From: Candidatus Woesearchaeota archaeon
Lineage (GTDB): Archaea; Nanobdellota; Nanobdellia; Woesearchaeales; GW2011-AR9
Reading direction: 5' to 3'
Assembly: GCA_016214025.1 (NCBI GenBank)
Contig: JACRPH010000004.1
Span: 17,370 to 81,369, forward strand
DNA: 64,000 nt
Shown piece after piece: positions 17,721 to 63,627 of the stretch. The translations under genes were made by a program, and so were the position numbers. The notes below the pieces were generated by a model. The model ran no database searches. It was not told where the DNA came from and was given only the letters and a program-made list of their open reading frames with translations. Numbering within the stretch: position 1 is the first letter of the stretch; each line of letters opens with the position of its first letter.

Positions 17721-20276
17721 ATGGCAGATGAGGCTCAAGAAGCAAGAATTAATGTAAGCAATAATGCGGTAAATGGGGCTCAAAACTCCAACAGCACCAA
17801 AAGTGTCCTAGACATAGACAACGATATCCTCACTCCGGGAATGAAGCAGTATCAGGAAGTGAAAAAGCTCCATCCTGACTGCCTGGTCATGCTAAGGATG
17901 GGAGATTTCTATGAAATGTTCTATCAGGATGCCGTTACCGCGTCCAGAGAATTAGAAATAACTCTCACCTCCAGAGGAAAAGGAGACAAGCGTGCGCCGT
18001 TAGCCGGAATTCCTTATCATGCGTTAGAGCCATACCTAGCGCGATTAGTGAAGAAAGGGCACAAGATAGCTATAGTAGAGCAATTAGAAGATCCTAAACT
18101 TGCCAAAGGCTTGGTAAAAAGAGGATTAGTCCGCATAGTTACTCCGGGAACCATATTTGAATCATCTATGCTGAATGAAAAAGAGAATAATTATTTGATG
18201 GCGCTTACAGCTAGAGGAGAAGAGTTTGGGTTAGCTTTATGTGACGTTTCTACCGGAGAGTTTTCTACCATTACAGCAGAAAGCCTTAACCAACTGCATA
18301 ATATCATTATCCGTTTCAACCCCAGCGAATGCCTCATTCCCGAAAGCCTAAAAGTGAATCAGGAACTGATGGAAAGATTAAGGCATTATGATTGTTTAAT
18401 TAATTCATTGGGAGATTATTTCTTTTCCGTAGAAAAGTCCAGAGAATTGCTGCAGAAACATTTTAACTTATTAACGCTAGATGCATTTGGAATTGCAGAT
18501 AAGCCATTGAATGTTGCAGTTAGCGGAGCTTTACTGAAGTATTTGTTAGACACACAAAAAAACTCCTTAACCCATCTGAAAAAAGTATCTTTAGTTAATG
18601 TGCAGCAAAAGATGCAGTTAGATTCCAGCACTTTACGTAATTTAGAATTAACCCAGAATATTCGTGACGGAACCACCCGAGGAACGTTGCTTTCAGTATT
18701 AGACAAAACCGTAACTTCTTTAGGGGCAAGGCTGCTGCGGAAATGGCTCAAAGAACCGTTATTAAACATAGATGCCATAAACAAACGCTTAGATGCAGTA
18801 GAAGAATTTAATCGCCGGGTAATTCAGCGGGAAGAGATTATCTCTCTATTAGAATCAGTATATGATCTGGAACGCTTAATCAGCAAAGTTAATTATGGCA
18901 GCGCTAATGCCCGCGATTTACTCTCACTGAAAACTTCATTGCAGCAGCTGCCTCAGATTAAGCAGAAGCTGAGCGGATTTGAAAGCTATTTACTACTTGA
19001 AATAAACTTGATAGAAAACCTGCACGAACTAACCGCTTTGCTGGAATCCTCCATTCGGGAAGATGCTCCGGCTACAGTAAGGGAAGGAGGAATAATAAAA
19101 TCCCATTATAATTCTGAATTAGACCAATTACACGATTTGAAGCACAACAGCAAGAAATATCTGCAGGAGTTGGAGGAAAAAGAAAAACATAAGACCGGAA
19201 TACCGTTGCGATTGGGATACACTAAAGTGTTCGGGTATTTTATCGAAGTAACTCACAAAAATGTTCCGATGGTGTCCCCGGATTGGATCCGAAAACAGAC
19301 TACGGTTAATACTGAAAGGTATATTACTCCTGAACTGAAAGAAATCGAAGAGAAAATTCTAACTGCGGAAGAGAAGATTGTGGAGTTAGAGTACCGCCTG
19401 TTCCAAGAGCTGGCACAAAGAGTAGCGGAGAATACGGTTAAGATTCAGGATATTGCATCAAAGATGGCGGTGCTGGATGTATTGTGCTCTTTATCTCGGG
19501 TGGCGCTAGAGAATAATTATGTCAAGCCGGAGATAGTGGGACAGAAGGTTATCCAGATTAAAAACGGCCGGCATCCGGTAGTGGAAAAAATTGAATCAAG
19601 ATTTATTGCTAATGATGTGTTTACTTCGGAAGGAGAGATGCTCATAATTACCGGGCCCAACATGAGTGGAAAATCTACGACCATGCGCCAAGTAGCGCTT
19701 ATTGTATTAATGGCACAAGTCGGCTCATTTGTACCCGCAGAAAAAGCGGTTCTGGGAATAGTAGATAGAATATTTACCCGTGTAGGCGCTTATGATGATT
19801 TAAGTTCAGGACAGTCTACGTTTATGATAGAAATGACCGAAACCGCTAACATCCTGAATAATGCTACGGAAAACAGCTTGATAATTTTGGATGAGATTGG
19901 AAGGGGAACTTCTACCTTTGATGGGGTTTCTATCGCTTGGAGTGTAGCGGAGTATCTTATTAATCACACTAAAGCTAAAACTTTGTTCAGTACGCACTAT
20001 CATGTGTTGAATAAGCTGGCAGAGAAGTTTTCTCGGATTAAGAATTATAATATTGCGGTGCGCGAGAGTAAAGGAGAAGTTATTTTCCTGCATAAGTTAA
20101 TCGAGGGAGGAACGGATGAGAGTTACGGGATTCATGTAGCGAAGCTAGCCGGATTGCCGGAAGAAGTAGTGAAGAGAGCAGAAGAAATTCAGGGAATATT
20201 GCAGGCAGATGATGAGATGATGCGGAAGATAAAAGCGAAGAAATTAACTGAGCAGATGAGTCTGGAGAAGTTTTGA
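17721..20276 (+). CDS. mutS: DNA mismatch repair protein MutS (bacterial MutS1 type, domains I-V).
   Basis: N-terminal mismatch-binding region TPGMKQY..GDFYEMF. Walker A GPNMSGKSTTMRQ is present, with ST-F-E-TAN-LDEIGRGTST motifs. Length is 851 aa. Confidence 0.85.
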   Translation: MADEAQEARINVSNNAVNGAQNSNSTKSVLDIDNDILTPGMKQYQEVKKLHPDCLVMLRMGDFYEMFYQDAVTASRELEITLTSRGKGDKRAPLAGIPYHALEPYLARLVKKGHKIAIVEQLEDPKLAKGLVKRGLVRIVTPGTIFESSMLNEKENNYLMALTARGEEFGLALCDVSTGEFSTITAESLNQLHNIIIRFNPSECLIPESLKVNQELMERLRHYDCLINSLGDYFFSVEKSRELLQKHFNLLTLDAFGIADKPLNVAVSGALLKYLLDTQKNSLTHLKKVSLVNVQQKMQLDSSTLRNLELTQNIRDGTTRGTLLSVLDKTVTSLGARLLRKWLKEPLLNIDAINKRLDAVEEFNRRVIQREEIISLLESVYDLERLISKVNYGSANARDLLSLKTSLQQLPQIKQKLSGFESYLLLEINLIENLHELTALLESSIREDAPATVREGGIIKSHYNSELDQLHDLKHNSKKYLQELEEKEKHKTGIPLRLGYTKVFGYFIEVTHKNVPMVSPDWIRKQTTVNTERYITPELKEIEEKILTAEEKIVELEYRLFQELAQRVAENTVKIQDIASKMAVLDVLCSLSRVALENNYVKPEIVGQKVIQIKNGRHPVVEKIESRFIANDVFTSEGEMLIITGPNMSGKSTTMRQVALIVLMAQVGSFVPAEKAVLGIVDRIFTRVGAYDDLSSGQSTFMIEMTETANILNNATENSLIILDEIGRGTSTFDGVSIAWSVAEYLINHTKAKTLFSTHYHVLNKLAEKFSRIKNYNIAVRESKGEVIFLHKLIEGGTDESYGIHVAKLAGLPEEVVKRAEEIQGILQADDEMMRKIKAKKLTEQMSLEKF

Positions 20277-49224: not shown

Positions 49225-50358
49225 ATGTTCAATTTTAGAATTAAACATAAAGCTCAAAACAGCCAGGCGCGTACTGGCATCATTAGCACTTCTCACGGAA
49301 AGATAAATACACCTGCTTTTATTCCAGTAGCTACCCAAGCCACCGTTAAAGCGCTCACTCCGATACAATTGGAAGAAATCGGATTTGAAGCGGTCTTGTG
49401 CAATACTTACCATCTCTATCTCCGCCCGGGAGCAGCTCTCGTTAAAAAAATGGGCGGGCTGCAGAAGTTCATGGCCTGGAACAAGCCTTTGTTTACCGAT
49501 TCTGGAGGATTTCAGGTGTTCAGCTTGAAAAACGGCTTATGCGAAGTGAATGATGATGGTGTTACCTTCAAATCACATATTGATGCTTCTAAACATATTT
49601 TTACCCCAGAAAAATCGATGCAGATCCAACGAAAATTAGGTGCAGACTTGATTTTTGCTTTTGACCAGTGCCTGGCTCTTAATGCTGATTACGAGACTAC
49701 TAAGAAATCTCTGGAGAGGACCCATGCCTGGGCAGTAAGAAGTTTGAGAGAGTTCAAAAGGTTGAATAAAGATAAGAAACAAGCGCTTTATGGTATTGTG
49801 CAAGGAGGAAGATTTTTAGAGCTGCGCCAAAAAAGTGCGAAGTTTATCTCTTCACTGGGGTTTGATGCTATCGGCATAGGCAGTATTTTCGGCGATCCTA
49901 AAGACGAAAGCAGGAAGATTGTGGAGCATACGCTTAAGTTTTTGCCACCGGGTAAACCAAAACACCTGCTGGGCATTGGAGCAGTAGAGGACATCTTTAC
50001 TTATGTAGAAATGGGAATGGATACGTTTGATTGTGTTCTTCCCACCCGATTGGCGAGAGTTGGTTATATTTATATCCGGCCGGAATCCGGAGGAAAGCCG
50101 GAGAATAAGTTTAGATACAGGATTACTACCTCTAAATTTAAATCAGATAAAAAGCCATTAGATGGACATTGTGATTGTTATGTCTGCCAGAATTTCTCCC
50201 GGGCTTATCTGCATCATTTATTCAAAGCCGAAGAATTATTGTCTTATACTTTGGCTACATATCACAATCTGTATTTCTTTGCTCGGATGATGCGGGAGAT
50301 TAGGGAGAGTATTGAGAAAGATAAGTTTAGGGAGCTGAAGAGGAAGTGGGTGAAATAA
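49225..50358 (+). CDS. tgt: tRNA-guanine transglycosylase (queuine/archaeosine TGT catalytic core, 377 aa, no PUA extension).
   Basis: TPAFIPVAT...LCNTYHL...FTDSGGFQ...DQC match the catalytic motifs. Zn site CDCYVCQNFSRAYLHHL is present. Confidence 0.8.
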   Translation: MFNFRIKHKAQNSQARTGIISTSHGKINTPAFIPVATQATVKALTPIQLEEIGFEAVLCNTYHLYLRPGAALVKKMGGLQKFMAWNKPLFTDSGGFQVFSLKNGLCEVNDDGVTFKSHIDASKHIFTPEKSMQIQRKLGADLIFAFDQCLALNADYETTKKSLERTHAWAVRSLREFKRLNKDKKQALYGIVQGGRFLELRQKSAKFISSLGFDAIGIGSIFGDPKDESRKIVEHTLKFLPPGKPKHLLGIGAVEDIFTYVEMGMDTFDCVLPTRLARVGYIYIRPESGGKPENKFRYRITTSKFKSDKKPLDGHCDCYVCQNFSRAYLHHLFKAEELLSYTLATYHNLYFFARMMREIRESIEKDKFRELKRKWVK

Positions 50359-50553: not shown

Positions 50554-51207
50554 ATGGAACAAATACCTTTGCAAATAAGATTGAAAAGAGAAGTCCACCG
50601 CAAGATAGCTTCAGCTCAGGACTTAATCGTCAAAGAAGTTTATTCTGTCTTTAATAAGGCAGTTTTACATGGAGGGACAGCCATCTGGCGGTGCTACTCA
50701 GGCAAGAGGTTCTCAGAAGATTTAGACTTTTATCTTCCTAAAGACAAAGAAAAGATAGAACAATTGTTTGAAAACTTAAAGAAAGGTGGTTTTGAAATAA
50801 AAAAGAAAAAAATCTCCGACCGAAGCATTTATTCTGAATTAGAGCTGGCTCGAACCTCAGTCCGACTAGAAGCAACTTTTCAAGATATTCCCGGAGTTAT
50901 CTGCGATTATGAACAGTCTGATGGCAATTTTATCTCCATCTACAGTTTAACTCCAGAAGCATTCTTGGCTGAAAAAATCAATACTTACCTAAAACGATTC
51001 AAAGTAAGAGACTTGTGGGATATTTTCTTTTTATTAAAGAGCGTTAAAGATTTAAAACAAATTAAAGAGATGGCAGCATTCATTAAAAACTATAAACAGC
51101 CTGTAGATGAAGAAAATCTTAAAGCCATCCTGCTGGAAGGGATAGTGCCCTCAGCTCAAGAGATGTTAATATATATCCACCAAAAATGGGAACAAGAATC
51201 CACTTAG
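50554..51207 (+). CDS. AbiEii/DUF1814-family nucleotidyltransferase (type IV TA toxin-like).
   Basis: LHGGTAIWRCYSGKRFSEDLDFY is the characteristic GGTAL...R.S.DLDF NTase motif. Confidence 0.6.
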   Translation: MEQIPLQIRLKREVHRKIASAQDLIVKEVYSVFNKAVLHGGTAIWRCYSGKRFSEDLDFYLPKDKEKIEQLFENLKKGGFEIKKKKISDRSIYSELELARTSVRLEATFQDIPGVICDYEQSDGNFISIYSLTPEAFLAEKINTYLKRFKVRDLWDIFFLLKSVKDLKQIKEMAAFIKNYKQPVDEENLKAILLEGIVPSAQEMLIYIHQKWEQEST

Positions 51208-51776
51208 CTCAGATTGAACGCCTGTTTGAAAAAAGCCCGGTAGTAGATTTTAAGTCTATTGCAAGAATAATTCGATCCGGCAAAGGTAAAAGTAGGAGCA
51301 ATTATGCTAAACTAATGGTTTCTAATCTGTTGAAGAAAGACAAAATCCATAAAGTCGGAAAAGGATATTACTCCCAGCATAATGAAAGCTCTTTGGCTGT
51401 TTTTGGGTTTCAGCCCGCTTATTTGGGCTTGCAAAGTGCTCTAAGTTACTATGGGTTGTGGGAGCAGGAGACCATACCCATAATCTTAACTACAAAAAAA
51501 GTTAGAAGAGGGCTCCGGCAAGTCTTGGGAACAAATATTCTAGTAAGAAATATCAGCAGGAAGTATTTCTTCGGTTTTGAGCTGGCCAGAGAAGAAAGTT
51601 TTTATCTGCCCTACTCTGACTTGGAAAAAACGCTGATCGATTTTGTTGTGTTTAATGAAAAGATTGATGATTCTGTCTTAAAAGCGCTGGCTAAGAGAGT
51701 TGATAGAGATAAGTTAAAGAAATATCTCTGGAGGTATCCTAAAAAGCTCAGAGGGAGGGTGGAGGGGGTTTTATAG
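51186..51776 (+). CDS. AbiEi/COG5340-like transcriptional regulator (antitoxin-like). It overlaps the NTase gene.
   Basis: The 22-nt overlap with the upstream NTase gene indicates an operon. N-terminus ERLFEKSPVVDFKSIARII is HTH-like. Confidence 0.45.
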   Translation: MGTRIHLAQIERLFEKSPVVDFKSIARIIRSGKGKSRSNYAKLMVSNLLKKDKIHKVGKGYYSQHNESSLAVFGFQPAYLGLQSALSYYGLWEQETIPIILTTKKVRRGLRQVLGTNILVRNISRKYFFGFELAREESFYLPYSDLEKTLIDFVVFNEKIDDSVLKALAKRVDRDKLKKYLWRYPKKLRGRVEGVL

Positions 51777-51994: not shown

Positions 51995-52465
51995 TTAACG
52001 AGATTTGCTATTATCTTCTTCATCACCCCCTCCATCATCATTTGCTTCATCTTCTGCGTTTTCTTCATCTTCTCCTTCATCTTCCATACTCTCCTTTGCG
52101 TTCTGCCTTAGCGTTTCCAGAACAGTTTCCGCGGCCATACACGCTCCCTGCCAGAACATCTCCTCTGCTAATTCTCTCTTAGAGTTTTCTTTTAAATCGT
52201 CTTTTAAGTCTGACCACACTTTTGAGAATTCCTGCTCGACTAATTCATCAGCAAGATCTTCTGCCATTTTCTCATTTAATTCTCCCAAAGGCATGTCCAC
52301 ATGGATTTTTCCGATTTCTTCTTCGGACATTTTTGAGAATTCTTCTTTTTTGTTATCAAAACACTCAAAACAGGCATGCTTTTCCACACCTTCCAACATA
52401 TCTTCCGGGCATTCTATTTCTTTGCCGCAGAAACTGCATTTCACCTTTACTGATTTTTTATCCAT
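51995..52465 (-). CDS. Zinc-ribbon protein with an acidic C-terminal tail.
   Basis: CSFCGKEIEC...CFECF, followed by a D/E-rich tail. Confidence 0.45.
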   Translation of the reverse strand: MDKKSVKVKCSFCGKEIECPEDMLEGVEKHACFECFDNKKEEFSKMSEEEIGKIHVDMPLGELNEKMAEDLADELVEQEFSKVWSDLKDDLKENSKRELAEEMFWQGACMAAETVLETLRQNAKESMEDEGEDEENAEDEANDDGGGDEEDNSKSR

Positions 52466-52510: not shown

Positions 52511-54799
52511 TTACCCCTTCCTTTTCTTCCCTTCCCTCTTCATCCACTCTTTATACTCAAATAAAATCTTCTTCGAGTCTAGTTTACCATATTTGTCTTT
52601 AATCTTGTCCGAAATCAACCTGAACGCATCGTTAGCTTTTACTACAAATTCTGCTTCCAGGATAGTCGGATCTTGTTTTTCGATGAATAAATCCACAATG
52701 GCCTGTTTGCAATCCGCCCTTAACTGAATATTCTCCCACACCGCTTCCCAGTTCCCGGCGAACTCTTTTATCTTCCCCGCCATTCTTTTCAGTATGTCTG
52801 AATTGCCGTTAATTAGGTCATCAGTCAATTCCAATTCATCCGTTTTAGGATTATACACCATCAAATCTACAAACGCGCCTTCTTTCAATGGGTCCTCATC
52901 CCATTCTTTTCTCACTTCAGTAATTCTAAGCACTCTCTTGAATTTCTTCAATCCGGAAATGATGGGATTAGCGATTACAATAATATCAATCGCTTTAAAT
53001 GAAGTTTTAGGCACCCCGATATCGTTTACAACCCTATCATAAATGCCATAAGGAGAATCGGCATGAATGGTTCCGGCTACTACATTAGCGGCTGCGCCTA
53101 CCCGCATCGCTTCAAAAAGTGCTACTGCTTCTTTCGATCTAACTTCTCCTACAAACAAGGCTGAATCTCCCATCCTTAAAGTGGATCTTATTCCGATAGA
53201 AGCATCTACTTCCGAACCAGGAGATGATAACGCCGAGGCTACTTTCATTGCTTCTAGATTATATCCTAATTCACGTAATGCTTCTTGGGGAAGTTCAAAA
53301 GTGTCCTCCAACGAAATAAGGCGCACCCTTCGCATTATCTCCACCATAACACTTCCTAGCAGGCTGGATTTTCCGCTGCTCCTGGTTCCAGCAATAAGTA
53401 AAGCGGCGTTATTATCGATAATGAAACTTAGCAATCCGGCAGCAAGTGAATTCATCATTCTTATCTTGGGCTGCATGTACAACGGAAAAGTCCAGGGGAA
53501 ATCTCTATGCCGGCGGAAAGAAAACGCCATTCCTGCCGGAGACAACGGAGCAGTTATAGCTGAAACTCTGGAGCTGAATCCTTTAACTTTTAATTCCGTA
53601 TCTAATATCGGATTAGCTTCATCAAGTGGTCTTCCGGAAATTAATCTGAGCTTGGTAGCCCAGCTATCCACTTCTAATCGGGTGGGATAGACATTAGTAT
53701 AACAATCTCCATAATCCTGATGCACGACGAAAATGGGTAGTTCTCCATTTGGCGAGTTGATGTTAACATCCTGCACTTTGGGATCAGCTAATAGTAATTC
53801 GATAAGCCCAAATCCTATTGTGTATCTCAGCAGTGCCCGTGCTAATTTATCCACCTCTTCTTCTTTAAGTTTTAATCCGCGGTGCTCAGCTAAATCGTTC
53901 AACAAATCTTTTCCGATGTTAAAGAACACTTCTCTCATGCGCTGGGGGTCGACAAACTCTTCCTTGCCCGGCTTATGCTCGGACATGATGCGTTTGGCAT
54001 CGTCGAGAAGCTCGTAACTCTGCTCATCAAACTTAAATTCTGGAGGAGTAATATGATATTGGGTCTTAACATTGTCGTCAAAGGAGAAAATATTTACTTC
54101 ACAGGAATCTCCTTCAGCATCAAAGTCATAACTTTCTTCGAGCTCCCCGTCAGGAAACTCGCTGATTAATTTAGTATACATGAAATCAGGCCGGGTAGTG
54201 GGATGGAAAATATTAGCATAAACCTCTCTCTCGCCCAATTTGTATTCCTGGGTATGGGGCATCAGCAGTTGAATTATCTTTAATTGCTCTATTTTCTGCA
54301 GTGCATCTTGGATTATAGCTAAAAATTGCTGCTGGGAATGCTGGTGTCTCTGGTCGATTAGATTATTTAGTTTAAGTTTCTCTCGAAGTTCTAATCGTTT
54401 CATCTCTACATAAGCTGCTAACGGGTCTTCTTTCAGACGCTTAGATAGTAATCTCTGAAATTGGGCATAACTTCCTCGCACGTAACGCTCATGCATGGGA
54501 TCAACCACTATATGTGAATAATTGTAGCGTTCATCTTTATTCAGCATTTTATATAATAACGATAATTCAATCAATAGCTGGGTTTGCGAATAATCGTATT
54601 CATATTCTCTTAATTGAGTAAGAATAATGGTGGTAACTCCGCTTACTTCTAACAGAATATCTACTATTTTAGCTGCGCATACTTCATTGTACTCAATCGA
54701 AGGGGGGAAAGTACACTTTTCAGTGTAGACTTTCAGTATCTTGTTCTCTCCTTCATGATAAGTTTCGTACTCAAAACAGTTTTTGCCCAGGTCTACCAT
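52511..54799 (-). CDS. Type II/IV secretion-system family ATPase (FlaI/VirB11/TadA-like) with a ~350-aa N-terminal extension.
   Basis: Walker A GTRSSGKSSLLGS, Asp box ISLEDTFEL, Walker B FVGEVRSKEA and His box GTIHADS are present. Length is 762 aa. Confidence 0.75.
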   Translation of the reverse strand: MVDLGKNCFEYETYHEGENKILKVYTEKCTFPPSIEYNEVCAAKIVDILLEVSGVTTIILTQLREYEYDYSQTQLLIELSLLYKMLNKDERYNYSHIVVDPMHERYVRGSYAQFQRLLSKRLKEDPLAAYVEMKRLELREKLKLNNLIDQRHQHSQQQFLAIIQDALQKIEQLKIIQLLMPHTQEYKLGEREVYANIFHPTTRPDFMYTKLISEFPDGELEESYDFDAEGDSCEVNIFSFDDNVKTQYHITPPEFKFDEQSYELLDDAKRIMSEHKPGKEEFVDPQRMREVFFNIGKDLLNDLAEHRGLKLKEEEVDKLARALLRYTIGFGLIELLLADPKVQDVNINSPNGELPIFVVHQDYGDCYTNVYPTRLEVDSWATKLRLISGRPLDEANPILDTELKVKGFSSRVSAITAPLSPAGMAFSFRRHRDFPWTFPLYMQPKIRMMNSLAAGLLSFIIDNNAALLIAGTRSSGKSSLLGSVMVEIMRRVRLISLEDTFELPQEALRELGYNLEAMKVASALSSPGSEVDASIGIRSTLRMGDSALFVGEVRSKEAVALFEAMRVGAAANVVAGTIHADSPYGIYDRVVNDIGVPKTSFKAIDIIVIANPIISGLKKFKRVLRITEVRKEWDEDPLKEGAFVDLMVYNPKTDELELTDDLINGNSDILKRMAGKIKEFAGNWEAVWENIQLRADCKQAIVDLFIEKQDPTILEAEFVVKANDAFRLISDKIKDKYGKLDSKKILFEYKEWMKREGKKRKG

Positions 54800-54924
54800 C
54801 TTTTTGTACTGGGGAGATTGGCTATTCTTATAAACTTTTGTAGGCAGCAGGGCTATTTTAGCCTAGTGCCACTCCAAAATAATCACATAACTTTATTATA
54901 GGGCTGCAGTTTAAATACCTAATT

Positions 54925-55317
54925 ATGGCAGTGAATACATCTGTAGCAGAACCGCAAGGAGGGATGGACCCGGCCAAGTTATATGTATGGGTGAAAGCAT
55001 TAGAGAGCAAAGTAAACAATATGCTGCGGGAGATGGACTTGTTGAAGAATAATCTGGTCAAGAAAAACGACGAGATGAAAAAAGAGCTCAAAGCCATGAA
55101 TGATGAATTGATGGAAATGAAGAGCGAGCAGCAAAAGATGAGCCAGAACATGGACTTAATCATAAAAGAACTGAAGCAGACCGCAGGAATAGAAGAAGTA
55201 GCGGTGCTGAAGAAGTATATGGACTTATGGAACCCTCTAAATTTTGTGACGCAGAGAGATTTAGAGCGGGCGGTGGAAGCCAAAATCGGAAGCATGAGCA
55301 AATCTGCGGCGAAATAA
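54925..55317 (+). CDS. Coiled-coil protein.
   Basis: Heptad-rich NNMLREMDLLKNNLVKKNDEMKKELKAMNDELMEMKSEQQKM. Confidence 0.4.
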   Translation: MAVNTSVAEPQGGMDPAKLYVWVKALESKVNNMLREMDLLKNNLVKKNDEMKKELKAMNDELMEMKSEQQKMSQNMDLIIKELKQTAGIEEVAVLKKYMDLWNPLNFVTQRDLERAVEAKIGSMSKSAAK

Positions 55318-55366
55318 ATATAAACTTCGTATTGTTTATCAATTATTATCATATTAATTAAAAAAG

Positions 55367-55987
55367 GTGATGATGATGCCGGCACAAAAAGATCCCGTCT
55401 CTGATGTATTACAGCTGCGGGAGCAAGGGCTTACCGATAATCTTATTGCGGAAGAGATGAGAAAGAAAGGCTATTCTCCGCAGCAGGTAAATTCAGCCAT
55501 TGCGCAGGCAGATGCATCAGCAGATACAGGAGGGATGGACATGGGCAATTTTAACGTACCGGCACAAGCTGGATTTCAGGGGCAGGGTTATCCTGCATAT
55601 GGCGGAGGCATGCCGGCAGCACCAACCGCACCCGCTTCAACGGATGATGCTAATCTTTACGAGCGCATTGAAGAAACCGTCGAAGGGATGATAGACGAAA
55701 AATGGGATGAATTAATCGGCGAAGTGAAAAAGATTGTGGAATGGAAGGAAAAGATGGAAGATGCGCTGAAGAAGATTCAAACTGACGTGGATAAGCTGAA
55801 AGAAGATTTCAAATTGCTGCATCAGGGCGTTCTGGGAAGATTAGAAGAATACGACACTAAGATGGGCGACGTGGATACGGAATTGAAAGCAGTAGGAAAA
55901 GTATTCAAAGACGTAGTTCCCCAGTTTGTAGATAATGTGAAAGAGCTGTCTTCTATCACCAAAGGGATGAAGAAGAAAGGGGAGTGA
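55367..55987 (+). CDS. Coiled-coil protein with a Gly/Pro/Ala-rich linker.
   Basis: N-terminal helical domain, then a GMPAAPTAPAS linker, then a C-terminal coiled coil KIQTDVDKLKEDFKLL. Confidence 0.45.
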   Translation: MMMMPAQKDPVSDVLQLREQGLTDNLIAEEMRKKGYSPQQVNSAIAQADASADTGGMDMGNFNVPAQAGFQGQGYPAYGGGMPAAPTAPASTDDANLYERIEETVEGMIDEKWDELIGEVKKIVEWKEKMEDALKKIQTDVDKLKEDFKLLHQGVLGRLEEYDTKMGDVDTELKAVGKVFKDVVPQFVDNVKELSSITKGMKKKGE

Positions 55988-56045
55988 GCTTTAGTCTAAG
56001 TTCTAATCTAAGTTATATTTTTCTTTCTTAGAGTTAATTTTATCC

Positions 56046-56603
56046 TCACGCACTCAAGAACGCTACCGCAAATATGGCTATGGCAAACATTATCATCAAT
56101 CCCAGGACTTTAGGATGGAATAAAGTAGCATAAATGTTGCTTTCAAAACTGGAGGTAGCTACCCCTCCGCTGCCCGTGACATTAGTGGCATTAACTCCTT
56201 GTTGAAATGAGACTTCGGTCAGCGATTGCCCCAGCACTTTGCCGAAGGCAGCGACCATTATTACTAAAGCGATCCCTATCAGCGTCCAATATACTGCTTT
56301 ATCTTTCATCGCCGAAGTTAAATCAGCTTCCTTCGCTCCAAATATCTGGAATACCAGAATCACCAGCACTAAGAAGATAATTACTACTACAAACCATGGT
56401 ATCATAAAGTTAATTACGTCTATTAGTGTTTTGGAGAGCATGGTCATCAACGCAGCGGCTACGGCTATGGTGGCATTAGTTCCAATAGAATCTCCTAAAG
56501 CTTTGGTTTTTTGAAGTAGGGCATAAACTAAAACTAACACAAACAAAAACGGATAAATAGAGCTGAAATAGTTCAATAACCCTACATCAAGGAAAGTTGC
56601 CAT
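56046..56603 (-). CDS. 5-TM membrane protein, paralog 3 of a tandem triplet.
   Basis: Shares the N-terminal motif Y-D-[IF]-[IL]-LPF-[IL]-LVFTIV-[FY]-AV-[LM]-[EQ]-KTK-[IV]-LG with 56634..57236 and 57365..57928. Confidence 0.5.
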   Translation of the reverse strand: MATFLDVGLLNYFSSIYPFLFVLVLVYALLQKTKALGDSIGTNATIAVAAALMTMLSKTLIDVINFMIPWFVVVIIFLVLVILVFQIFGAKEADLTSAMKDKAVYWTLIGIALVIMVAAFGKVLGQSLTEVSFQQGVNATNVTGSGGVATSSFESNIYATLFHPKVLGLMIMFAIAIFAVAFLSA

Positions 56604-56633
56604 TTTTTACTTGCATCCAAAATTCTAACGCAC

Positions 56634-57236
56634 CTATTTACTTCCTCCTCCTCTTTCAAACAGGCTGCTTACGCCTTTCCATAAGCTGCCCATTGCTTTT
56701 TCGCCCGTGCTTTTATCATCTTTAGTGATGAACCATATTATCACTCCGAATATCAATAGTATAATTATCAATTCAGTTACTTCCGGGCTCCACCACGAGA
56801 ACACATCATATGGCCCGTTCCACAACATCAGTGAAGCGCCAAAGATATAAATCACAAATCCTATGGAAATCAGCGCAATTATCGGAGCGGCAGCGGCAGA
56901 AAAGTTTGTTCCAAAGATGCCCATCAACAGCAACAGCATTATAGCCGCAACCGAAACTAAAGAGATGCTGGGCAGGGTTTCATTCATCACTTGTACCGGA
57001 TCATAGCCTAAAGGGTAACTGCCGATGATATGCGGGACGACAAACAATAACCCTAACACTAACGCGATAATTACATTAAACTGTTTGCGGTCTCCTAATA
57101 TTTTAGTCTTCTGCATTACTGCATATACAATGGTAAATACCAGAATGAACGGCAGCAGGAAATCCATGATTCCCCACGTTTGAAAATAATATGCTAAATT
57201 GGAAAAGGTTCCCCCCTGAAATATTCCGCTTACCAT
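56634..57236 (-). CDS. 5-TM membrane protein, paralog 2.
   Basis: Same family. A tandem 14-nt repeat lies in its upstream region. Confidence 0.5.
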   Translation of the reverse strand: MVSGIFQGGTFSNLAYYFQTWGIMDFLLPFILVFTIVYAVMQKTKILGDRKQFNVIIALVLGLLFVVPHIIGSYPLGYDPVQVMNETLPSISLVSVAAIMLLLLMGIFGTNFSAAAAPIIALISIGFVIYIFGASLMLWNGPYDVFSWWSPEVTELIIILLIFGVIIWFITKDDKSTGEKAMGSLWKGVSSLFERGGGSK

Positions 57237-57269
57237 AATTTTACCTCCTTTTTCTTTTTTAATGTAAGT

Positions 57270-57317
57270 TTATATACATACCCTTTTATACATGCCCTTT
57301 TATACATGCCCTTTAGT
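57270..57317. repeat. Tandem TATA-like repeat upstream of the paralog-2 gene.
   Basis: CCCTTTTATACATG occurs about 2.5 times, preceded by the related TTATATACAT. Confidence 0.6.
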
Positions 57318-57364
57318 ATATTAATCTTTGGTTACTCTCTTATTGCTTTACTTCTTTTATTGCT

Positions 57365-57928
57365 TTACTTCTTCTCACTGCTTTCTTTTTTAGGCAATGA
57401 TGAATCTCTGGTTACGTAAATTATGAACCCCAAGAGCACTACTAACATGATAATTCCTGCGGCCCATTCTTCGTTCCAGTACTCAAATACGGCAAATACA
57501 TATTGCAGCCAGTCCATGGCGTTGAGGAAGATTACCGCTAATCCAATAAACATAATTATGGTAAATATTTTGGTCCAAGTAGGAATATCTTTAAACGTAA
57601 ATTCTTTGTCTCCGAAGAACACACCTACCAGCATTAAGAAGCACACCCCTAAGATTAATAATAATACTACATTAGCCATCATCTGGTTGATAACTGAAAC
57701 TAATTGGGTGGAAGCGATAACCAAGAAAGATGTTACAAAAGCAACCATAGCATTAAGATTCTTCTTGGTATAATCTTTGCCATCTATTTTTTCCAGCCCC
57801 AAAACTTTAGTTTTCTCCAGAACCGCAAATACAATGGTGAAGACTAACAGGAATGGCAGTATTATGTCATATACCCCTATCTTATCTAAGAAGGTGATTA
57901 CTCCTCGGAATACGCTTTCTTCTGCCAT
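57365..57928 (-). CDS. 5-TM membrane protein, paralog 1.
   Basis: Same family as the two downstream paralogs. TATATAAATG lies upstream. Confidence 0.5.
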   Translation of the reverse strand: MAEESVFRGVITFLDKIGVYDIILPFLLVFTIVFAVLEKTKVLGLEKIDGKDYTKKNLNAMVAFVTSFLVIASTQLVSVINQMMANVVLLLILGVCFLMLVGVFFGDKEFTFKDIPTWTKIFTIIMFIGLAVIFLNAMDWLQYVFAVFEYWNEEWAAGIIMLVVLLGFIIYVTRDSSLPKKESSEKK

Positions 57929-58167
57929 TAATTCATCCTCTTTTTATTAAGTAGGACTAAAAAACAGGAGTATATAAATGTTTCTTCAGGGTTTGGGAAG
58001 TTTTTCAATTGGGAGAACGTTTTTCCCCGGCTCTTTCCAGACACAGTTTCACATGATAATCTTAAAAACGAAGACTTTAAATAGTAGTGGGAATTATCTT
58101 TTTTATTGCTGGTTGCAAGTTATTATTAACTGTTACAAGTCGTATTTAAAACAAGAGGTGGAAAAAA

Positions 58168-59598
58168 GTGAGGGCGGCATCATTTGCGTTTGGATTATCC
58201 TTAGCGTTGATTATCCTGTTATCTTCGGTGTGGGCAGATACAGTGGTAGCGTCTGCTGCAGTGGTTGATCATATTACAATTATTGATAAAGCCTATTTCA
58301 CTTTAAATGTAACTAATACGGATATTATCGAACACCAATATATCATTTCTTCTTCAGACTTGGCGTGGGCAATAGAACCTAAAGATAAAGTTAAGAAAAT
58401 TACCCTAATGCCAGGAGAGTCATATCTTACTGAGTTAGAGGTATATCCAGTAAAAGAATTGTCTCCGGGAATTTATCTAGTGCCAGTATATATCGGCGGG
58501 GATGCCAATGAGGAAGTACAGTTGAAAGTTTACTTGGGTTCGCTTACCCAACCAGGATATGCCCCCACAGTTAAAGTTACCGTGGATATGCCAGCTAAAG
58601 TTGATCCTAGCGCCTCGGTTTCTATAAAAATATTGTTACAGAACCTTAATGCATTGAATCTTACCGGAGTAAAAGTTAAGTTAAGCAGCGAAGAGCTGCC
58701 TGAGTTTGCCCAATCTGCCGTGGTAGATATTCCTTCTCTGGGAACTAAAGAAGTGGAATTCTCAATTACGCCTAATCCGCATCAGCAGCCGAAAGAGTAT
58801 ACGCTTAAAGTTGCGCTGGAGCGCTTTGGAGAGGATTTTAAAGTGGTGGAACAGGATATAGAAGTAGTTACACTGTTGCCGCCTTTTTCGGTTTCGAAAG
58901 TAGAGGAGAAATGGTCTTATCTGAAATTGTTTCAGGTGTTTGAAGTTAAGAATGGCGGGAATGTGTTAAACCAGCAAGAAGTTAGGGTGCCGGTTTCTTG
59001 GCTGCAGGCTTGGCTTGAGACTGGAAATGCTGAAGTTAAAACAGAGCAAGGGCAGAGATTTTTTACGTGGGGAGTTACTTTAGGGCCAAATAGCAGTACT
59101 GCAGTTTATTCTGCGATTGATTATCGTATTATTGTTTATATCGTGATAGTGTTAGCATTGTTGATTTGGTTTTATATATATACTAGTTGTCCGTTAGCGG
59201 TTAAAAAGCATGCTATTGTTACCAAGAAAGATGATGAAGGGGCGTTGTCTGAGATTAAAATTACGATTGAGGTCAAGAATAAGTCGGGTAAGCAAGTTAA
59301 AGATGTGACAGTAGTTGATATTGTTCCAGCGTATGCCGTTTATCATAAGGGCGGGGTGGAAGCAGAAGAGATGGATGCTTCAGTCCGGCCGCAAAGAGTG
59401 ACTCATGGTAAAGAAGGCGCGCAGGTGATTTGGTCCTTATCAGATTTAGATGCTAAAGAGCAGAGAGTGATGAGTTATCACCTGAAAGCTAAACTGAATA
59501 TTTTGGGGGCAATCAGCTTGCCGAGAGCTACTGCTGAGTATATGAAGAAAGGCGGAAAGAAGAGGAAAGCATATTCCAATATATTTAAGCTGGAGTAA
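58168..59598 (+). CDS. Large single-pass surface protein: signal peptide, ~300-aa beta-rich ectodomain, TM, ~140-aa cytoplasmic tail.
   Basis: N-terminal LSLALIILLSSVWA. Internal TM IIVYIVIVLALLIWFYIY. Basic tail KKGGKKRK. Confidence 0.45.
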   Translation: MRAASFAFGLSLALIILLSSVWADTVVASAAVVDHITIIDKAYFTLNVTNTDIIEHQYIISSSDLAWAIEPKDKVKKITLMPGESYLTELEVYPVKELSPGIYLVPVYIGGDANEEVQLKVYLGSLTQPGYAPTVKVTVDMPAKVDPSASVSIKILLQNLNALNLTGVKVKLSSEELPEFAQSAVVDIPSLGTKEVEFSITPNPHQQPKEYTLKVALERFGEDFKVVEQDIEVVTLLPPFSVSKVEEKWSYLKLFQVFEVKNGGNVLNQQEVRVPVSWLQAWLETGNAEVKTEQGQRFFTWGVTLGPNSSTAVYSAIDYRIIVYIVIVLALLIWFYIYTSCPLAVKKHAIVTKKDDEGALSEIKITIEVKNKSGKQVKDVTVVDIVPAYAVYHKGGVEAEEMDASVRPQRVTHGKEGAQVIWSLSDLDAKEQRVMSYHLKAKLNILGAISLPRATAEYMKKGGKKRKAYSNIFKLE

Positions 59599-59715: not shown

Positions 59716-60105
59716 ATGAAAGACTTTTTTTTACAATTAAAGGAAGCCTTTGCGGGATCTTCTGGTGCGCCGGGAGTTGATTCTGAAGCTTATCCCGAAG
59801 TGGGTTCAGCAGCTAAAGAGGATCGCAGCAAGGTTACAGTGCGTCCATTCGTGATGGAAGAGTTTGAAGATATTAAAGAGATCTTGGACGTATTGAGAGA
59901 AGGATCTACCGTGGCCTTGATCAACATCAAGCCGTTGAAGGACAAAGATATTGTAGAGCTGAAGAGAGCTATTTCCAAGCTGAGAAAAACCACTGAAGCT
60001 ATTGACGGGGATATTGCCGGATTTGGCGAGGATTATGTTGTAGCTACCCCGCAATTTGCCCGGATTCACCGCCAGAGGCAGGTGGAGATGAGCGAAGTAG
60101 AATAA
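59716..60105 (+). CDS. sepF: Cell division protein SepF homolog.
   Basis: VRPFVMEEFEDIKEILDVLREGSTVALINIKPLKDKDIVELKRAISKLRKTTEAIDGDIAGFGEDYVVATP matches the SepF domain. Confidence 0.7.
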   Translation: MKDFFLQLKEAFAGSSGAPGVDSEAYPEVGSAAKEDRSKVTVRPFVMEEFEDIKEILDVLREGSTVALINIKPLKDKDIVELKRAISKLRKTTEAIDGDIAGFGEDYVVATPQFARIHRQRQVEMSEVE

Positions 60106-61926: not shown

Positions 61927-62037
61927 GTTCTGGAGGTAATATTTGGGGGTTTATATATGTTGCTGAGATGCAAACTGCAGCCCAACAATAAGATATATAA
62001 ACCTTTAAGCTATTCCTACCCCATAAAAGAGGAAAAG

Positions 62038-63627
62038 ATGAAGAATAAGCTAGTTTTGTGGCTATTGGTGGTAGTTCTAGTTATATCTACATTCGTTATC
62101 GCTCAAGAACCCTTTCCTTGTGGAACAGATGAAGATTGCATATATAACGTTGACAATGAATCTTATTGCGACCCCACCAGCCTTTTATGTGTTCCTCCCC
62201 CGCCTGAAATTCCTCCTGAAGAGTCGCTTTATGCGCCTCCTGCTCCAGCTATAGAAACCAGCGCCATTACTTCTTTACAGCTTCAAATTGACACCCTGCA
62301 GATTAGCCTAGATGAACTATCGTCACAAATAAATCTTTTAGGGTCCGATACTAATTACAAATTAGCCGATATCGAAGCAAAATTACAGTCCCTCTCCGAT
62401 AAATTAAATGCTCTCAAATCCAAAGATATACCTACATTTAACACCGGCTTAGCTATGTTGCAGCAAGATGTAAACGAGACCAGTGCCGAACTCAGCTCGG
62501 TGCAGGAAGAACTGGACCGAAAAGGATTCGTGTTATATTCATTTCTGGTGGTAGTGTTGTTAATGGTATTAGGTGGAGTGGTATATTATTTGTGGTATAA
62601 AACTGGTGAAAGTAAAGAGGTTGCCCTTCCTCGAAGCTCCTACGCTTACATTACTAAAATGATAAAGCAGGGAAAGAAATTTCCGCATATTAAAACTGAA
62701 TTAATTAAAGCCGGCTGGTCAGATGAAGAGATAGAACAAGCCTACAAAGAGACTACCAAACATAACTACCAGCGTTTCTTGCAGAGGAGCCAGCCAGGAA
62801 CGGCAGCTAAAATATCCGCTTCTCCCAGCTCTTTTTCGCACCCTAAAACTTCTTCATTCAACCCGCAGATAAAAGCGGTCGCCATAGCGGTAGTTTGCTT
62901 AATCCTGCTCGGCGGAGGAATCTTATTGTTAGGGAACACCGTTGGAAAAGCTATTTACTTTCAGAAACTTATCGGAGGCTCAACCACTAAGACTGCAGGA
63001 GAGATAACTTATACTGTAGAATGCACCCCGCCGCATAGATTAAATCCAGAACAGAATGGCTGCTGCTTGGATGTCAACAATAATGCCCAATGTGATAACT
63101 TGGAAAACCTCCCTGCACCCAATATCACCGGTCCAACTGCCGGGACTAAGTGCTTGGATCATCAGCAATGCGGAGCTGACAAATGTATAAACAACCTTTG
63201 CACACCGCCGACATATTATACCAAATCATTAGGTTCCTGCTCTAAAGTATGCAACTATTACAGCGTGGAAGTCATAACCAGCGATGGAGAGAGATATAAT
63301 TTACGCCCGGGAGAAGGAAGTTATACTGCAGCTGGAGCGTTAGATTGGACCATAATGAAAGCACCTAATCATTGCATTGAAGAATCAGTAGTTGTTCCCA
63401 TTGAAATTTCCCGAAAGAAAACCGGCGGGAAGATCATCAATACTGAACTCATAACTTTAGGAAAAGGAGAAACCAGTGCTACTTTAAAACACGCTTTCGT
63501 TCCTAAGCTGGGGTTTACGCTTAAAGTGAATTGGGTGTCTGAATTATGCGCTCCCAACGAAGCTGAGTTGAAAGCATCGATGATAAAACAAGGCTTGGCG
63601 GAAGCGAAGCTGAAGGCGAAAGGATGA
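62038..63627 (+). CDS. Secreted Cys-rich protein with coiled-coil and TM segments.
   Basis: Signal peptide LVLWLLVVVLVISTFVIA. Cys-rich stretches and two hydrophobic segments are present. Confidence 0.45.
   Translation: MKNKLVLWLLVVVLVISTFVIAQEPFPCGTDEDCIYNVDNESYCDPTSLLCVPPPPEIPPEESLYAPPAPAIETSAITSLQLQIDTLQISLDELSSQINLLGSDTNYKLADIEAKLQSLSDKLNALKSKDIPTFNTGLAMLQQDVNETSAELSSVQEELDRKGFVLYSFLVVVLLMVLGGVVYYLWYKTGESKEVALPRSSYAYITKMIKQGKKFPHIKTELIKAGWSDEEIEQAYKETTKHNYQRFLQRSQPGTAAKISASPSSFSHPKTSSFNPQIKAVAIAVVCLILLGGGILLLGNTVGKAIYFQKLIGGSTTKTAGEITYTVECTPPHRLNPEQNGCCLDVNNNAQCDNLENLPAPNITGPTAGTKCLDHQQCGADKCINNLCTPPTYYTKSLGSCSKVCNYYSVEVITSDGERYNLRPGEGSYTAAGALDWTIMKAPNHCIEESVVVPIEISRKKTGGKIINTELITLGKGETSATLKHAFVPKLGFTLKVNWVSELCAPNEAELKASMIKQGLAEAKLKAKG

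Follow-up and report, generated by a model that had tools for sequence, protein, structure and literature searches.

A conserved gene cluster around a Woesearchaeota secretion ATPase, probably of the type IV filament kind, with its platform gene apparently encoded elsewhere

What does a secretion ATPase drive when neither a recognizable platform protein nor pilins are encoded around it? The question is raised by a locus at positions 52,511 to 59,598 of a 64,000-nucleotide stretch from a Candidatus Woesearchaeota archaeon (assembly GCA_016214025.1, contig JACRPH010000004.1, positions 17,370 to 81,369 of the forward strand), a stretch that we refer to as the window. Here the gene of a 762-residue ATPase is accompanied by genes for two coiled-coil proteins, CC1 and CC2, and for three proteins with five predicted transmembrane (TM) segments each, TM5a, TM5b and TM5c. 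An initial annotation of this DNA placed the ATPase outside the canonical pairing of an assembly ATPase with a platform, and suggested that it may power a different envelope apparatus built from the 5-TM and coiled-coil proteins. We consider it likely that the locus belongs to a type IV filament cluster (pilus/archaellum superfamily) of seven genes, conserved in Woesearchaeales and related DPANN archaea, of which the window holds six while the seventh, the platform gene, lies elsewhere. The part of the locus on which this reading is built is as follows, in coordinates of the window.

52511-54799, minus strand: secretion (type IV filament assembly) ATPase, 762 residues, from Pfam T2SSE and relatives in the PDB
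54800-54924, no strand: divergent intergenic region of 125 bp between the ATPase and CC1 genes, read from the sequence
54925-55317, plus strand: CC1, soluble coiled-coil protein, 130 residues, from weak matches of coiled-coil type
55367-55987, plus strand: CC2, coiled-coil protein, 206 residues, from weak matches of coiled-coil type
56046-56603, minus strand: TM5c, 185 residues, third gene of the triplet, five predicted TM segments from a hydropathy scan
56634-57236, minus strand: TM5b, 200 residues, second gene of the triplet, five predicted TM segments from a hydropathy scan
57365-57928, minus strand: TM5a, 187 residues, first gene of the triplet, five predicted TM segments from a hydropathy scan

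For the comparison of gene order we used 80 loci anchored on the ATPase, taken from species-representative genomes, and 80 loci anchored on TM5 proteins, taken from metagenomes, the denominators being those loci with enough flanking sequence. In the ATPase-anchored set, CC1 and CC2 adjoin the ATPase gene in the same back-to-back arrangement in 50 of 56 loci, and the distance from it to the TM5 triplet is no more than 8 kb in 36 of 41. In the TM5-anchored set, CC2 is the next gene to the triplet in 27 of 30 loci, with the ATPase found within 7 kb in 17 of 20. The arrangement is still found where ATPase identity has fallen to 49-55%, and the linkage of the coiled-coil pair and the triplet to the ATPase is much tighter than that of the surrounding genes. 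The association of these genes, as first proposed, is real. The complete cluster is found in L078, L082, L139, L146, L147, L148, L157, L162 and L166, flanked by housekeeping genes only (AspRS, GlyRS); it runs TM5a-TM5b-TM5c, CC2-CC1 on the opposite strand, and then the ATPase and the platform. The ancestral unit is this set of seven genes, and it includes neither a pilin nor a peptidase gene.

In the window the locus is not a single operon. Nine ORFs, counting the zinc-ribbon, S476 and SepF genes described below, make up four transcription units on alternating strands, each with an AT-rich TATA-like box 5' of it. Two of these boxes stand back to back in the intergenic region 54800-54924, about 30 bp before the ATPase start and about 26 bp before the CC1 start, and to judge from the sequence they may act as promoters. 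Purifying selection on the ATPase, CC1, CC2 and the three TM5 genes is strong: in comparison with a 97%-identical relative, the ratio of nonsynonymous to synonymous substitution rates (dN/dS) is 0.019-0.076 at dS values of 0.3-1.2. The individual ratios include 0.019 for the ATPase (against L005), 0.026 for CC2, 0.034 for TM5b, 0.043 for TM5c and 0.059 for CC1.

Scanning the fetched loci, we observed a recurrent polytopic protein of about 725 residues (708-746), with 7-9 TM segments, encoded on the same strand as the ATPase. These proteins are mutual homologues (E <1e-215), and the family alignments hold 18 to 30 members at 48-77% identity. In L072, L075, L076, L078 and L082 the start of the gene overlaps the ATPase stop or lies no more than 15 bp from it; the gene is directly downstream of the ATPase also in L139, L146, L147, L148, L157, L162 and L166, stands 60-700 bp from it in L084, L080, L049, L054 and L050, and 2-7 kb from it in eight further loci. 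Among relatives, at least 17 loci have the two genes side by side. An AlphaFold model of the protein (pLDDT 71.7) matches the cytoplasmic domain of OutF in a Foldseek search with probability 0.99, and the prediction thus appears to contain the PilC/GspF cytoplasmic helical domain fold within a polytopic membrane protein. The OutF-type match covers one domain; the model shows a second helical region in the cytoplasm as well, at about residues 460-590. Sub-threshold matches to Pfam T2SSF occur in 5 of 18 members, in an alignment that spans the whole domain (profile positions 10-125 of 125), and JGI labels two members TadB. From this fold-level similarity in one domain, we conclude that the ~725-residue protein is a predicted divergent platform of the PilC/GspF/TadC/FlaJ type.

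The initial annotation had stated that no FlaJ/TadC/PilC-type protein is encoded nearby, which is correct for all 64 kb of the window; in relatives, however, the ~725-residue platform with its predicted PilC/GspF fold is operonic with the ATPase. The placement of the ATPase outside an ATPase/platform pair accordingly does not hold, as the platform is adjacent to it in relatives, and is encoded elsewhere in the same genomes in the window's own clade. ATPase and platform genes are found unlinked on a single contig of 921,657 bp (P0028 and P0166), on one of 638,281 bp (COV20_02510 and COV20_06410) and on one of 211,916 bp (P0116 and P0171), and they are far apart also within one metagenome-assembled genome (MAG) with the prefix COY27, so that there are at least four same-genome cases; in two further MAGs, whose locus tags begin with HYT52 and HYU22, the tags of the platform and TM5a genes are far apart. 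Where unlinked, the platform gene stands alone amid housekeeping genes, in one genome next to TGT. In the window TGT is found at 49225-50358, 2 kb downstream of the ATPase, and the two positions are consistent with a local rearrangement. A search of all six frames of the window yielded no fragment of the platform family (best E 3.7), and a 96%-identical relative has no platform within 6 kb. In the TM5-anchored set, platform and ATPase are neighbours in 7 of 8 loci without the gene of the surface protein S476, described below, and in 0 of 7 with it. From the relatives and the strong constraint on the ATPase we infer that the platform of this genome is encoded elsewhere, and that the platform-less appearance of the locus is mostly due to rearrangement together with a poorly recognized protein family.

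The 762-residue protein is an intact secretion ATPase of the GspE/FlaI/CpaF type. Its assignment to the FlaI/VirB11 superfamily in the initial annotation is borne out by a score of 46.2 bits against Pfam T2SSE (PF00437; cut-off 24.9) and by four intact motifs: Walker A (GTRSSGKS, residues 471-478), the Asp box (EDTFE, 498-502), Walker B (GDSALFVGEVR, 544-554) and the His box (GTIHA, 576-580). Its best relatives of solved structure are afGspE of the euryarchaeon Archaeoglobus fulgidus (2OAP, E 3.9e-30), FlaI (5.5e-17) and CpaF (1.1e-16), and the NCBIfam TadA model matches it at E 7e-32. Against the equivalog model of archaellum FlaI/ArlI (NF058587) it reaches 120.1 bits, far under the cut-off of 550, and against VirB11 (TIGR02788) and TrbB (TIGR02782) 56.3 and 57.8 bits, where the cut-offs are 250 and 305. 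Residues 241-655 align to residues 49-440 of 2OAP. Since the alignment starts at residue 241, residues 241-440 are an ordinary N-terminal domain, preceded by an extension of about 240 residues (1-240) rather than the ~350 first proposed, and followed by the RecA-like ATPase domain (441-660) and a conserved C-terminal extension of about 100 residues (661-762). Both extensions are kept family-wide, with a column identity of about 0.63 in the N-terminal and 0.66 in the C-terminal one as compared with 0.81-0.88 in the core, and residues 1-240 retain 29-37% identity to the most divergent members; profiles of PDB entries gave nothing meaningful for the N-terminal extension, only a chance-level match to a subtilisin prosegment. 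Orthologues of about 760 residues at 73-97% identity number in the hundreds, in MAGs of Woesearchaeota and Nanoarchaeota.

Some of these orthologues carry an intein of about 500 residues with a LAGLIDADG domain, inserted after residue 499 within the Asp box, between LED and TFE. It begins with Ser and ends in His-Asn, with Thr as the next residue. Examples are L070 (2468-6253), L079 (10001-13819) and L170 (10001-13786; P0002, 96% identical). The intein-bearing variants are 1261-1299 residues long, and the presence of the intein differs even among relatives that are 96-97% identical.

The two coiled-coil proteins on the opposite strand were rightly called as such, in that coiled-coil-type matches are all they produce. 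Neither has a TM segment or signal peptide in a hydropathy scan, and neither finds anything above threshold in Pfam, NCBIfam or PHROG; among profiles of PDB entries their matches are generic coiled coils, many of them trimeric, one being sigma-1 at E 0.77. For CC1 the solved structures matched are generic trimeric coiled coils only, and its family alignment shows a conserved C-terminal motif, K-Y-x-E-x-W-N-P-x-x-F-V-T. In the family alignment of CC2, which is downstream of CC1 in every case, a small helical domain at the N-terminus is joined by a linker rich in Pro, Gly and Gln to a conserved coiled-coil domain of about 105 residues at the C-terminus; in Pfam CC2 gives coiled-coil noise and a weak helical match resembling RepB_primase_C. 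Gene callers place the start of CC2 2-3 codons later, and the call in L086 is 204 residues long. Part of CC2 may have a counterpart in a 556-residue protein of the window (61957-63627, plus strand) that has three hydrophobic segments as well as Cys-rich regions and a stretch of coiled coil. A short helical motif in it, GWSDEEIEQAYKE, resembles the domain at the N-terminus of CC2, and the protein is matched weakly by the CC2 profile (E 0.032); in L022 one of its homologues is encoded close to the cluster.

The three tandem 5-TM proteins are paralogues, as had been claimed: each of them (185-200 residues) has five hydrophobic segments, and profile-profile comparison relates them with probabilities of 98-99.8% and E values of 1e-14 to 1e-29 (TM5b to TM5a 1e-29; TM5c to TM5a and TM5b 1e-16 and 4e-14). 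They nevertheless form separate orthologue groups, kept in a constant order in all loci. A profile made from the three finds 2754 representatives at 50% clustering, nearly all of 180-215 residues. TM5a, which is 100% identical to HZC30_01125 from a MAG of Candidatus Woesearchaeota, has 1875 homologues, all unnamed hypothetical proteins, and the names of distant TM5 representatives are empty as well. None of the three matches a family in Pfam, NCBIfam or PHROG; the structure model of TM5a is weak, and a fold search with it returned noise only. We also observed that TM5a orthologues share a nearly invariant, amphipathic N-terminus, M-x-E-E-S-x-F-R-G-[VIM], before the first TM segment. A role of TM5a as pilin or prepilin peptidase was considered and rejected, as the conserved F-R-G precedes charged residues, TM5b and TM5c are without the motif, and there is no invariant Asp pair. 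The idea that the TM5 proteins are a split platform was likewise abandoned, profile-profile comparison showing no similarity to the platform family. One metagenome protein of 365 residues, P0362, consists of two TM5 units naturally fused in tandem, an architecture consistent with paralogues that would work side by side in one complex.

How these parts might work together can be outlined. The 762-residue protein, whose motifs are intact and which is homologous to GspE, FlaI and CpaF, would on these grounds be the hexameric assembly ATPase, and it would drive the divergent ~725-residue PilC/TadC/FlaJ-type platform, which in this genome is presumed to be present at another site. Pilins and a prepilin peptidase would come from other loci, by analogy with Haloferax PilB3-C3. 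CC1 and CC2 are most likely cytoplasmic, because they have no signal peptide or TM segment, and as partners docking on the N- or C-terminal extension of the ATPase they may act as scaffold or regulator in the manner of FlaX or ArlCDE. TM5a, TM5b and TM5c are most likely a hetero-oligomeric membrane component beside the platform, a proposal made because their separate orthologue groups are kept in fixed order.

The absence of class-III-signal, pilin-like open reading frames (ORFs) from the window, claimed at the outset, was confirmed by a combined regular-expression and hydropathy scan. Such a lack of pilin genes beside an archaeal ATPase/TadC module is common, according to PMC4858521. No FlaH, FlaJ, FlaF/G or archaellin was seen among the neighbours in the window and about 160 related loci, a survey in which the profile scans covered the neighbours and the largest ORFs of the window, though not every ORF for FlaH. 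Surveys of Woesearchaeota report flaB, flaJ and flaK genes.

We regard the system as a lineage-specific form of a kind already described. According to the text of Hamm et al. 2024 (Nat Commun 15:6449, PMC11291902), cluster-2 DPANN, among which Woesearchaeota are named, possess two conserved type-IV-pilus-like loci, each with a CpaF ATPase, TadC and DPANN-specific coiled-coil proteins, that are found across several DPANN phyla. Several of the locus proteins, the coiled-coil proteins included, are reported there from the proteome of Nha. antarcticus, and the authors put forward a possible role in host contact. The present cluster is like their Locus 2 in having a secretion ATPase, a TadC-type platform, DPANN coiled-coil proteins and no pilins in the locus; by gene order, relatives included, coiled-coil genes stand here beside a CpaF/FlaI-like ATPase and a TadC-type gene, in a Woesearchaeota MAG. 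In Nha. antarcticus the coiled-coil gene NAR1_01690 is given as two genes away from a 1249-residue, intein-bearing FlaI-like ATPase, a layout that matches CC2-CC1-ATPase here, where intein variants (1261-1299 residues) occur too. From this agreement in layout, the present cluster is very probably the CpaF-TadC-coiled-coil Locus 2 of PMC11291902. The two differ in that the platform is displaced from the locus here, and in that the paper likens its coiled-coil proteins to viral attachment fibres, which implies a role at the surface, whereas CC1 and CC2 carry no export signal. What appears to be new is that the 5-TM triplet belongs to the conserved core, as the main text and methods of that paper make no mention of it.

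Other relatives share parts of this plan. Makarova, Koonin and Albers 2016 (PMC4858521) describe archaeal ATPase/TadC modules whose pilins are encoded elsewhere, for example PilB3-PilC3 of Haloferax volcanii, which like the present cluster are pilin-free ATPase/platform loci; some of their clade 2 ATPases, for example HVO_1160, bear extra N- and C-terminal domains, as the ATPase of the window does. In those clade 2 modules, however, the ATPase and tadC genes are adjacent, whereas here they are often unlinked and the platform, at about 725 residues, escapes the T2SSF profile, and partners such as CC1/CC2 and TM5 are not described for PilB3-PilC3 and the other clade 2 modules. The archaellum motor (FlaI/ArlI, FlaJ/ArlJ, FlaH/ArlH, FlaX or ArlCDE) has the ATPase superfamily and the logic of an ATPase-platform pair in common with the cluster. 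Its coiled-coil scaffold FlaX binds the archaellum ATPase, as described in PMC5019145, but bears a TM anchor, which CC1 and CC2 do not. To the bacterial Tad/Flp pilus (CpaF, TadB, TadC) the ATPase is related through CpaF (E 1.1e-16) and the TadA model (E 7e-32); Tad has two single-domain platform proteins where there is one long protein here, and Tad-specific genes (Flp pilin, TadZ, RcpA and others) do not accompany the present cluster. We also considered, and set aside, the putative MoxR/vWA secretion system of Makarova et al. 2015; 5-TM proteins are part of that system, but its marker genes are all absent here.

Beyond TM5a, the locus continues with two genes that are found only in part of the family.

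58168-59598, plus strand: S476, 476 residues, signal peptide and one later TM segment, from a hydropathy scan
59716-60105, plus strand: SepF homologue, 129 residues, downstream of S476, from PF04472

In S476 a region of about 300 residues, predicted to be extracellular, precedes the TM segment at 321-339, and a C-terminal region of about 137 residues follows it. The initial annotation described a surface protein with a signal peptide, one TM segment and a basic cytoplasmic tail; the signal-peptide-like N-terminus and the single later TM segment stand, but the ~137 residues are not a plain basic tail, as they include a weak beta-sandwich repeat of the DUF11/TIGR01451 type (359-441), and the basic end comes after it. 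If the topology is simply that of a protein with its signal peptide cleaved off and a single TM segment, the DUF11-like domain of about 100 residues would be in the cytoplasm, which is odd for a surface repeat. Pfam, NCBIfam and PHROG gave nothing above threshold for S476, and its best PDB profile match has an E value of 0.12. The identification of the SepF homologue agrees with its score against PF04472 (E 7.6e-11, 42.5 bits, cut-off 27), and it follows S476 in 35 loci. SepF is the archaeal membrane anchor of FtsZ. S476 is the neighbour of TM5a solely in the crown clade, to which the window belongs (31 of 41 genome loci that have 8 kb or more of upstream sequence, 20 of 30 TM5-anchored loci), and the S476-SepF pair is absent from divergent lineages that keep the seven-gene cluster; a protein family found upstream of TM5a in the divergent loci was examined as a counterpart of S476 and proved to be Asp/Asn-tRNA synthetases. 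We therefore take S476-SepF to be a later, clade-specific neighbour. The membership of S476 in the system is uncertain, and the SepF homologue is probably not a component of it.

The points that weigh against a filament cluster with a displaced platform have to be set beside the alternatives. There is no platform gene in the 64-kb window, where no ORF has more than five TM segments. The platform family itself stays under the Pfam T2SSF threshold (best 13.8 bits, E 0.06, against 25.2), finds no sequence match in the PDB and shows no significant internal repeat when its halves are compared with hhalign, and its assignment is drawn from a medium-confidence model and one domain of about 100-120 residues. 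No pilin is conserved in or near the cluster, class-III-like ORFs being sporadic and non-conserved (L026, L048, L066, L082, L083), and the conserved neighbours include no candidate for an A24-type prepilin peptidase, for which no genome profile search was made. CC1/CC2 and the TM5 proteins are tied to the ATPase by gene order only, in one group of related lineages whose synteny is partly inherited, and the equation with Locus 2 is drawn from gene layout. One alternative is the apparatus first proposed, in which the TM5 proteins and the coiled-coil pair, with neither platform nor pilins, recruited the ATPase and TM5 replaces the platform. The window has no platform and no pilins are conserved nearby, and for the window's clade linkage to the ATPase stands at 88-89% for CC1/CC2 and TM5, while the platform is adjacent in 10 of 62 loci and within 10 kb in 11 of 37. 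We nevertheless think this apparatus decidedly unlikely: divergent lineages carry an operonic platform alongside the TM5 and CC genes, so that all seven coexist, unlinked ATPase and platform genes share genomes, and the TM5 proteins are unlike the platform by profile comparison. Of the original suggestion, then, the tight linkage of the TM5 and coiled-coil partners to the ATPase is retained, and the replacement of the platform is not. It might instead be supposed that TM5a-c, S476 and SepF, possibly with CC1/CC2, are an envelope or division module that merely sits beside a pilus ATPase through inherited synteny. SepF is in the block, the four units have their own predicted promoters on alternating strands, the block of TM5, S476 and SepF moves as a unit away from the ATPase in L026 and L112, and the housekeeping neighbours TGT, Suf and a DHH-family gene are partly syntenic as well. 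Yet divergent lineages without S476-SepF keep TM5abc-CC2-CC1-ATPase-platform contiguous amid unrelated housekeeping genes, and an independent study, in its text (PMC11291902), has coiled-coil genes next to CpaF/TadC in several DPANN phyla, so that we regard such a merely inherited neighbourhood as improbable.

Small polytopic membrane proteins are typical of DNA-transfer and type IV secretion-like systems, and if the ATPase were the VirB11-type motor of such a system, the 5-TM proteins could be channel subunits similar to VirB6 or CedA. Weak NCBIfam matches to TrbB and VirB11 (E 1e-15) point that way, but they score far under the cut-offs (56 bits against 250) and are far surpassed by the matches to FlaI, TadA, CpaF and GspE (E 1e-34 to 1e-30); neither the window nor the conserved cluster holds a VirB4/HerA-type ATPase or coupling protein, and the partner protein has a predicted PilC/GspF domain, all of which makes a transfer motor very unlikely indeed. 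A different possibility keeps the motor and gives up the filament, with a PilB/PilC-type motor, three 5-TM proteins and two coiled-coil proteins forming a DPANN-specific membrane machine that is not a pilus but makes or drives a structure by which these episymbionts achieve cell-cell contact or transfer. This machine, if real, would explain a unit free of pilin and peptidase, its strong conservation and an ATPase that hosts inteins, and we rate it as unlikely beside the type IV filament cluster that we favour.

The remainder of the window holds housekeeping genes (PolB, two aminoacyl-tRNA synthetases, MutS, TGT and others), and some observations on the flanks and on variants of the cluster are recorded here.

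51995-52465, minus strand: zinc-ribbon protein, 156 residues, Cys4 ribbon at the N-terminus and a long tail of acidic residues, from an ORF call

The zinc-ribbon gene is on the same strand as the ATPase and 45 bp downstream of it. It was not detected in any of 80 related genome loci, and its only occurrence elsewhere is an unverified gene call of 156 residues at the equivalent position of L086, a short contig with identical proteins; the protein is apparently species-specific. Between this gene and TGT there is an overlapping toxin-antitoxin pair, AbiEii (PF08843, E 1e-17) and a weakly matched AbiEi-like protein, at 50554-51776 on the plus strand. The platform or other genes occupy this position in relatives, and the pair may therefore mark a rearrangement breakpoint. 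One lineage has the gene of a Ser/Thr protein kinase inserted between those of the ATPase and CC1 (L003, 8845-9927; L004, 2844-3926), and a TrmB-family regulator and two small extra genes (164 and 169 residues) between CC2 and TM5c. At 17721-20276 (plus strand) the window also encodes a bacterial-type MutS with all five domains (I-V, lowest E 1e-85); its presence in a DPANN archaeon of reduced genome may interest studies of horizontal transfer.

The earlier observation on this locus is thus largely correct and the linkage that it noted is real, while its placement of the ATPase outside the ATPase/platform framework does not hold. As a discovery this is modest, since the surprising platform-less ATPase largely dissolves. 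We stress that Pfam T2SSF misses the platform, so that automated surveys that use this profile tend to call such ATPases orphans. The seven-gene unit of Woesearchaeota, under strong constraint, offers concrete targets for interaction modelling and for work on cultivated DPANN. Contact with host cells is a necessity for DPANN archaea, and among the candidates proposed to serve it are type-IV-pilus-like loci that encode coiled-coil proteins.

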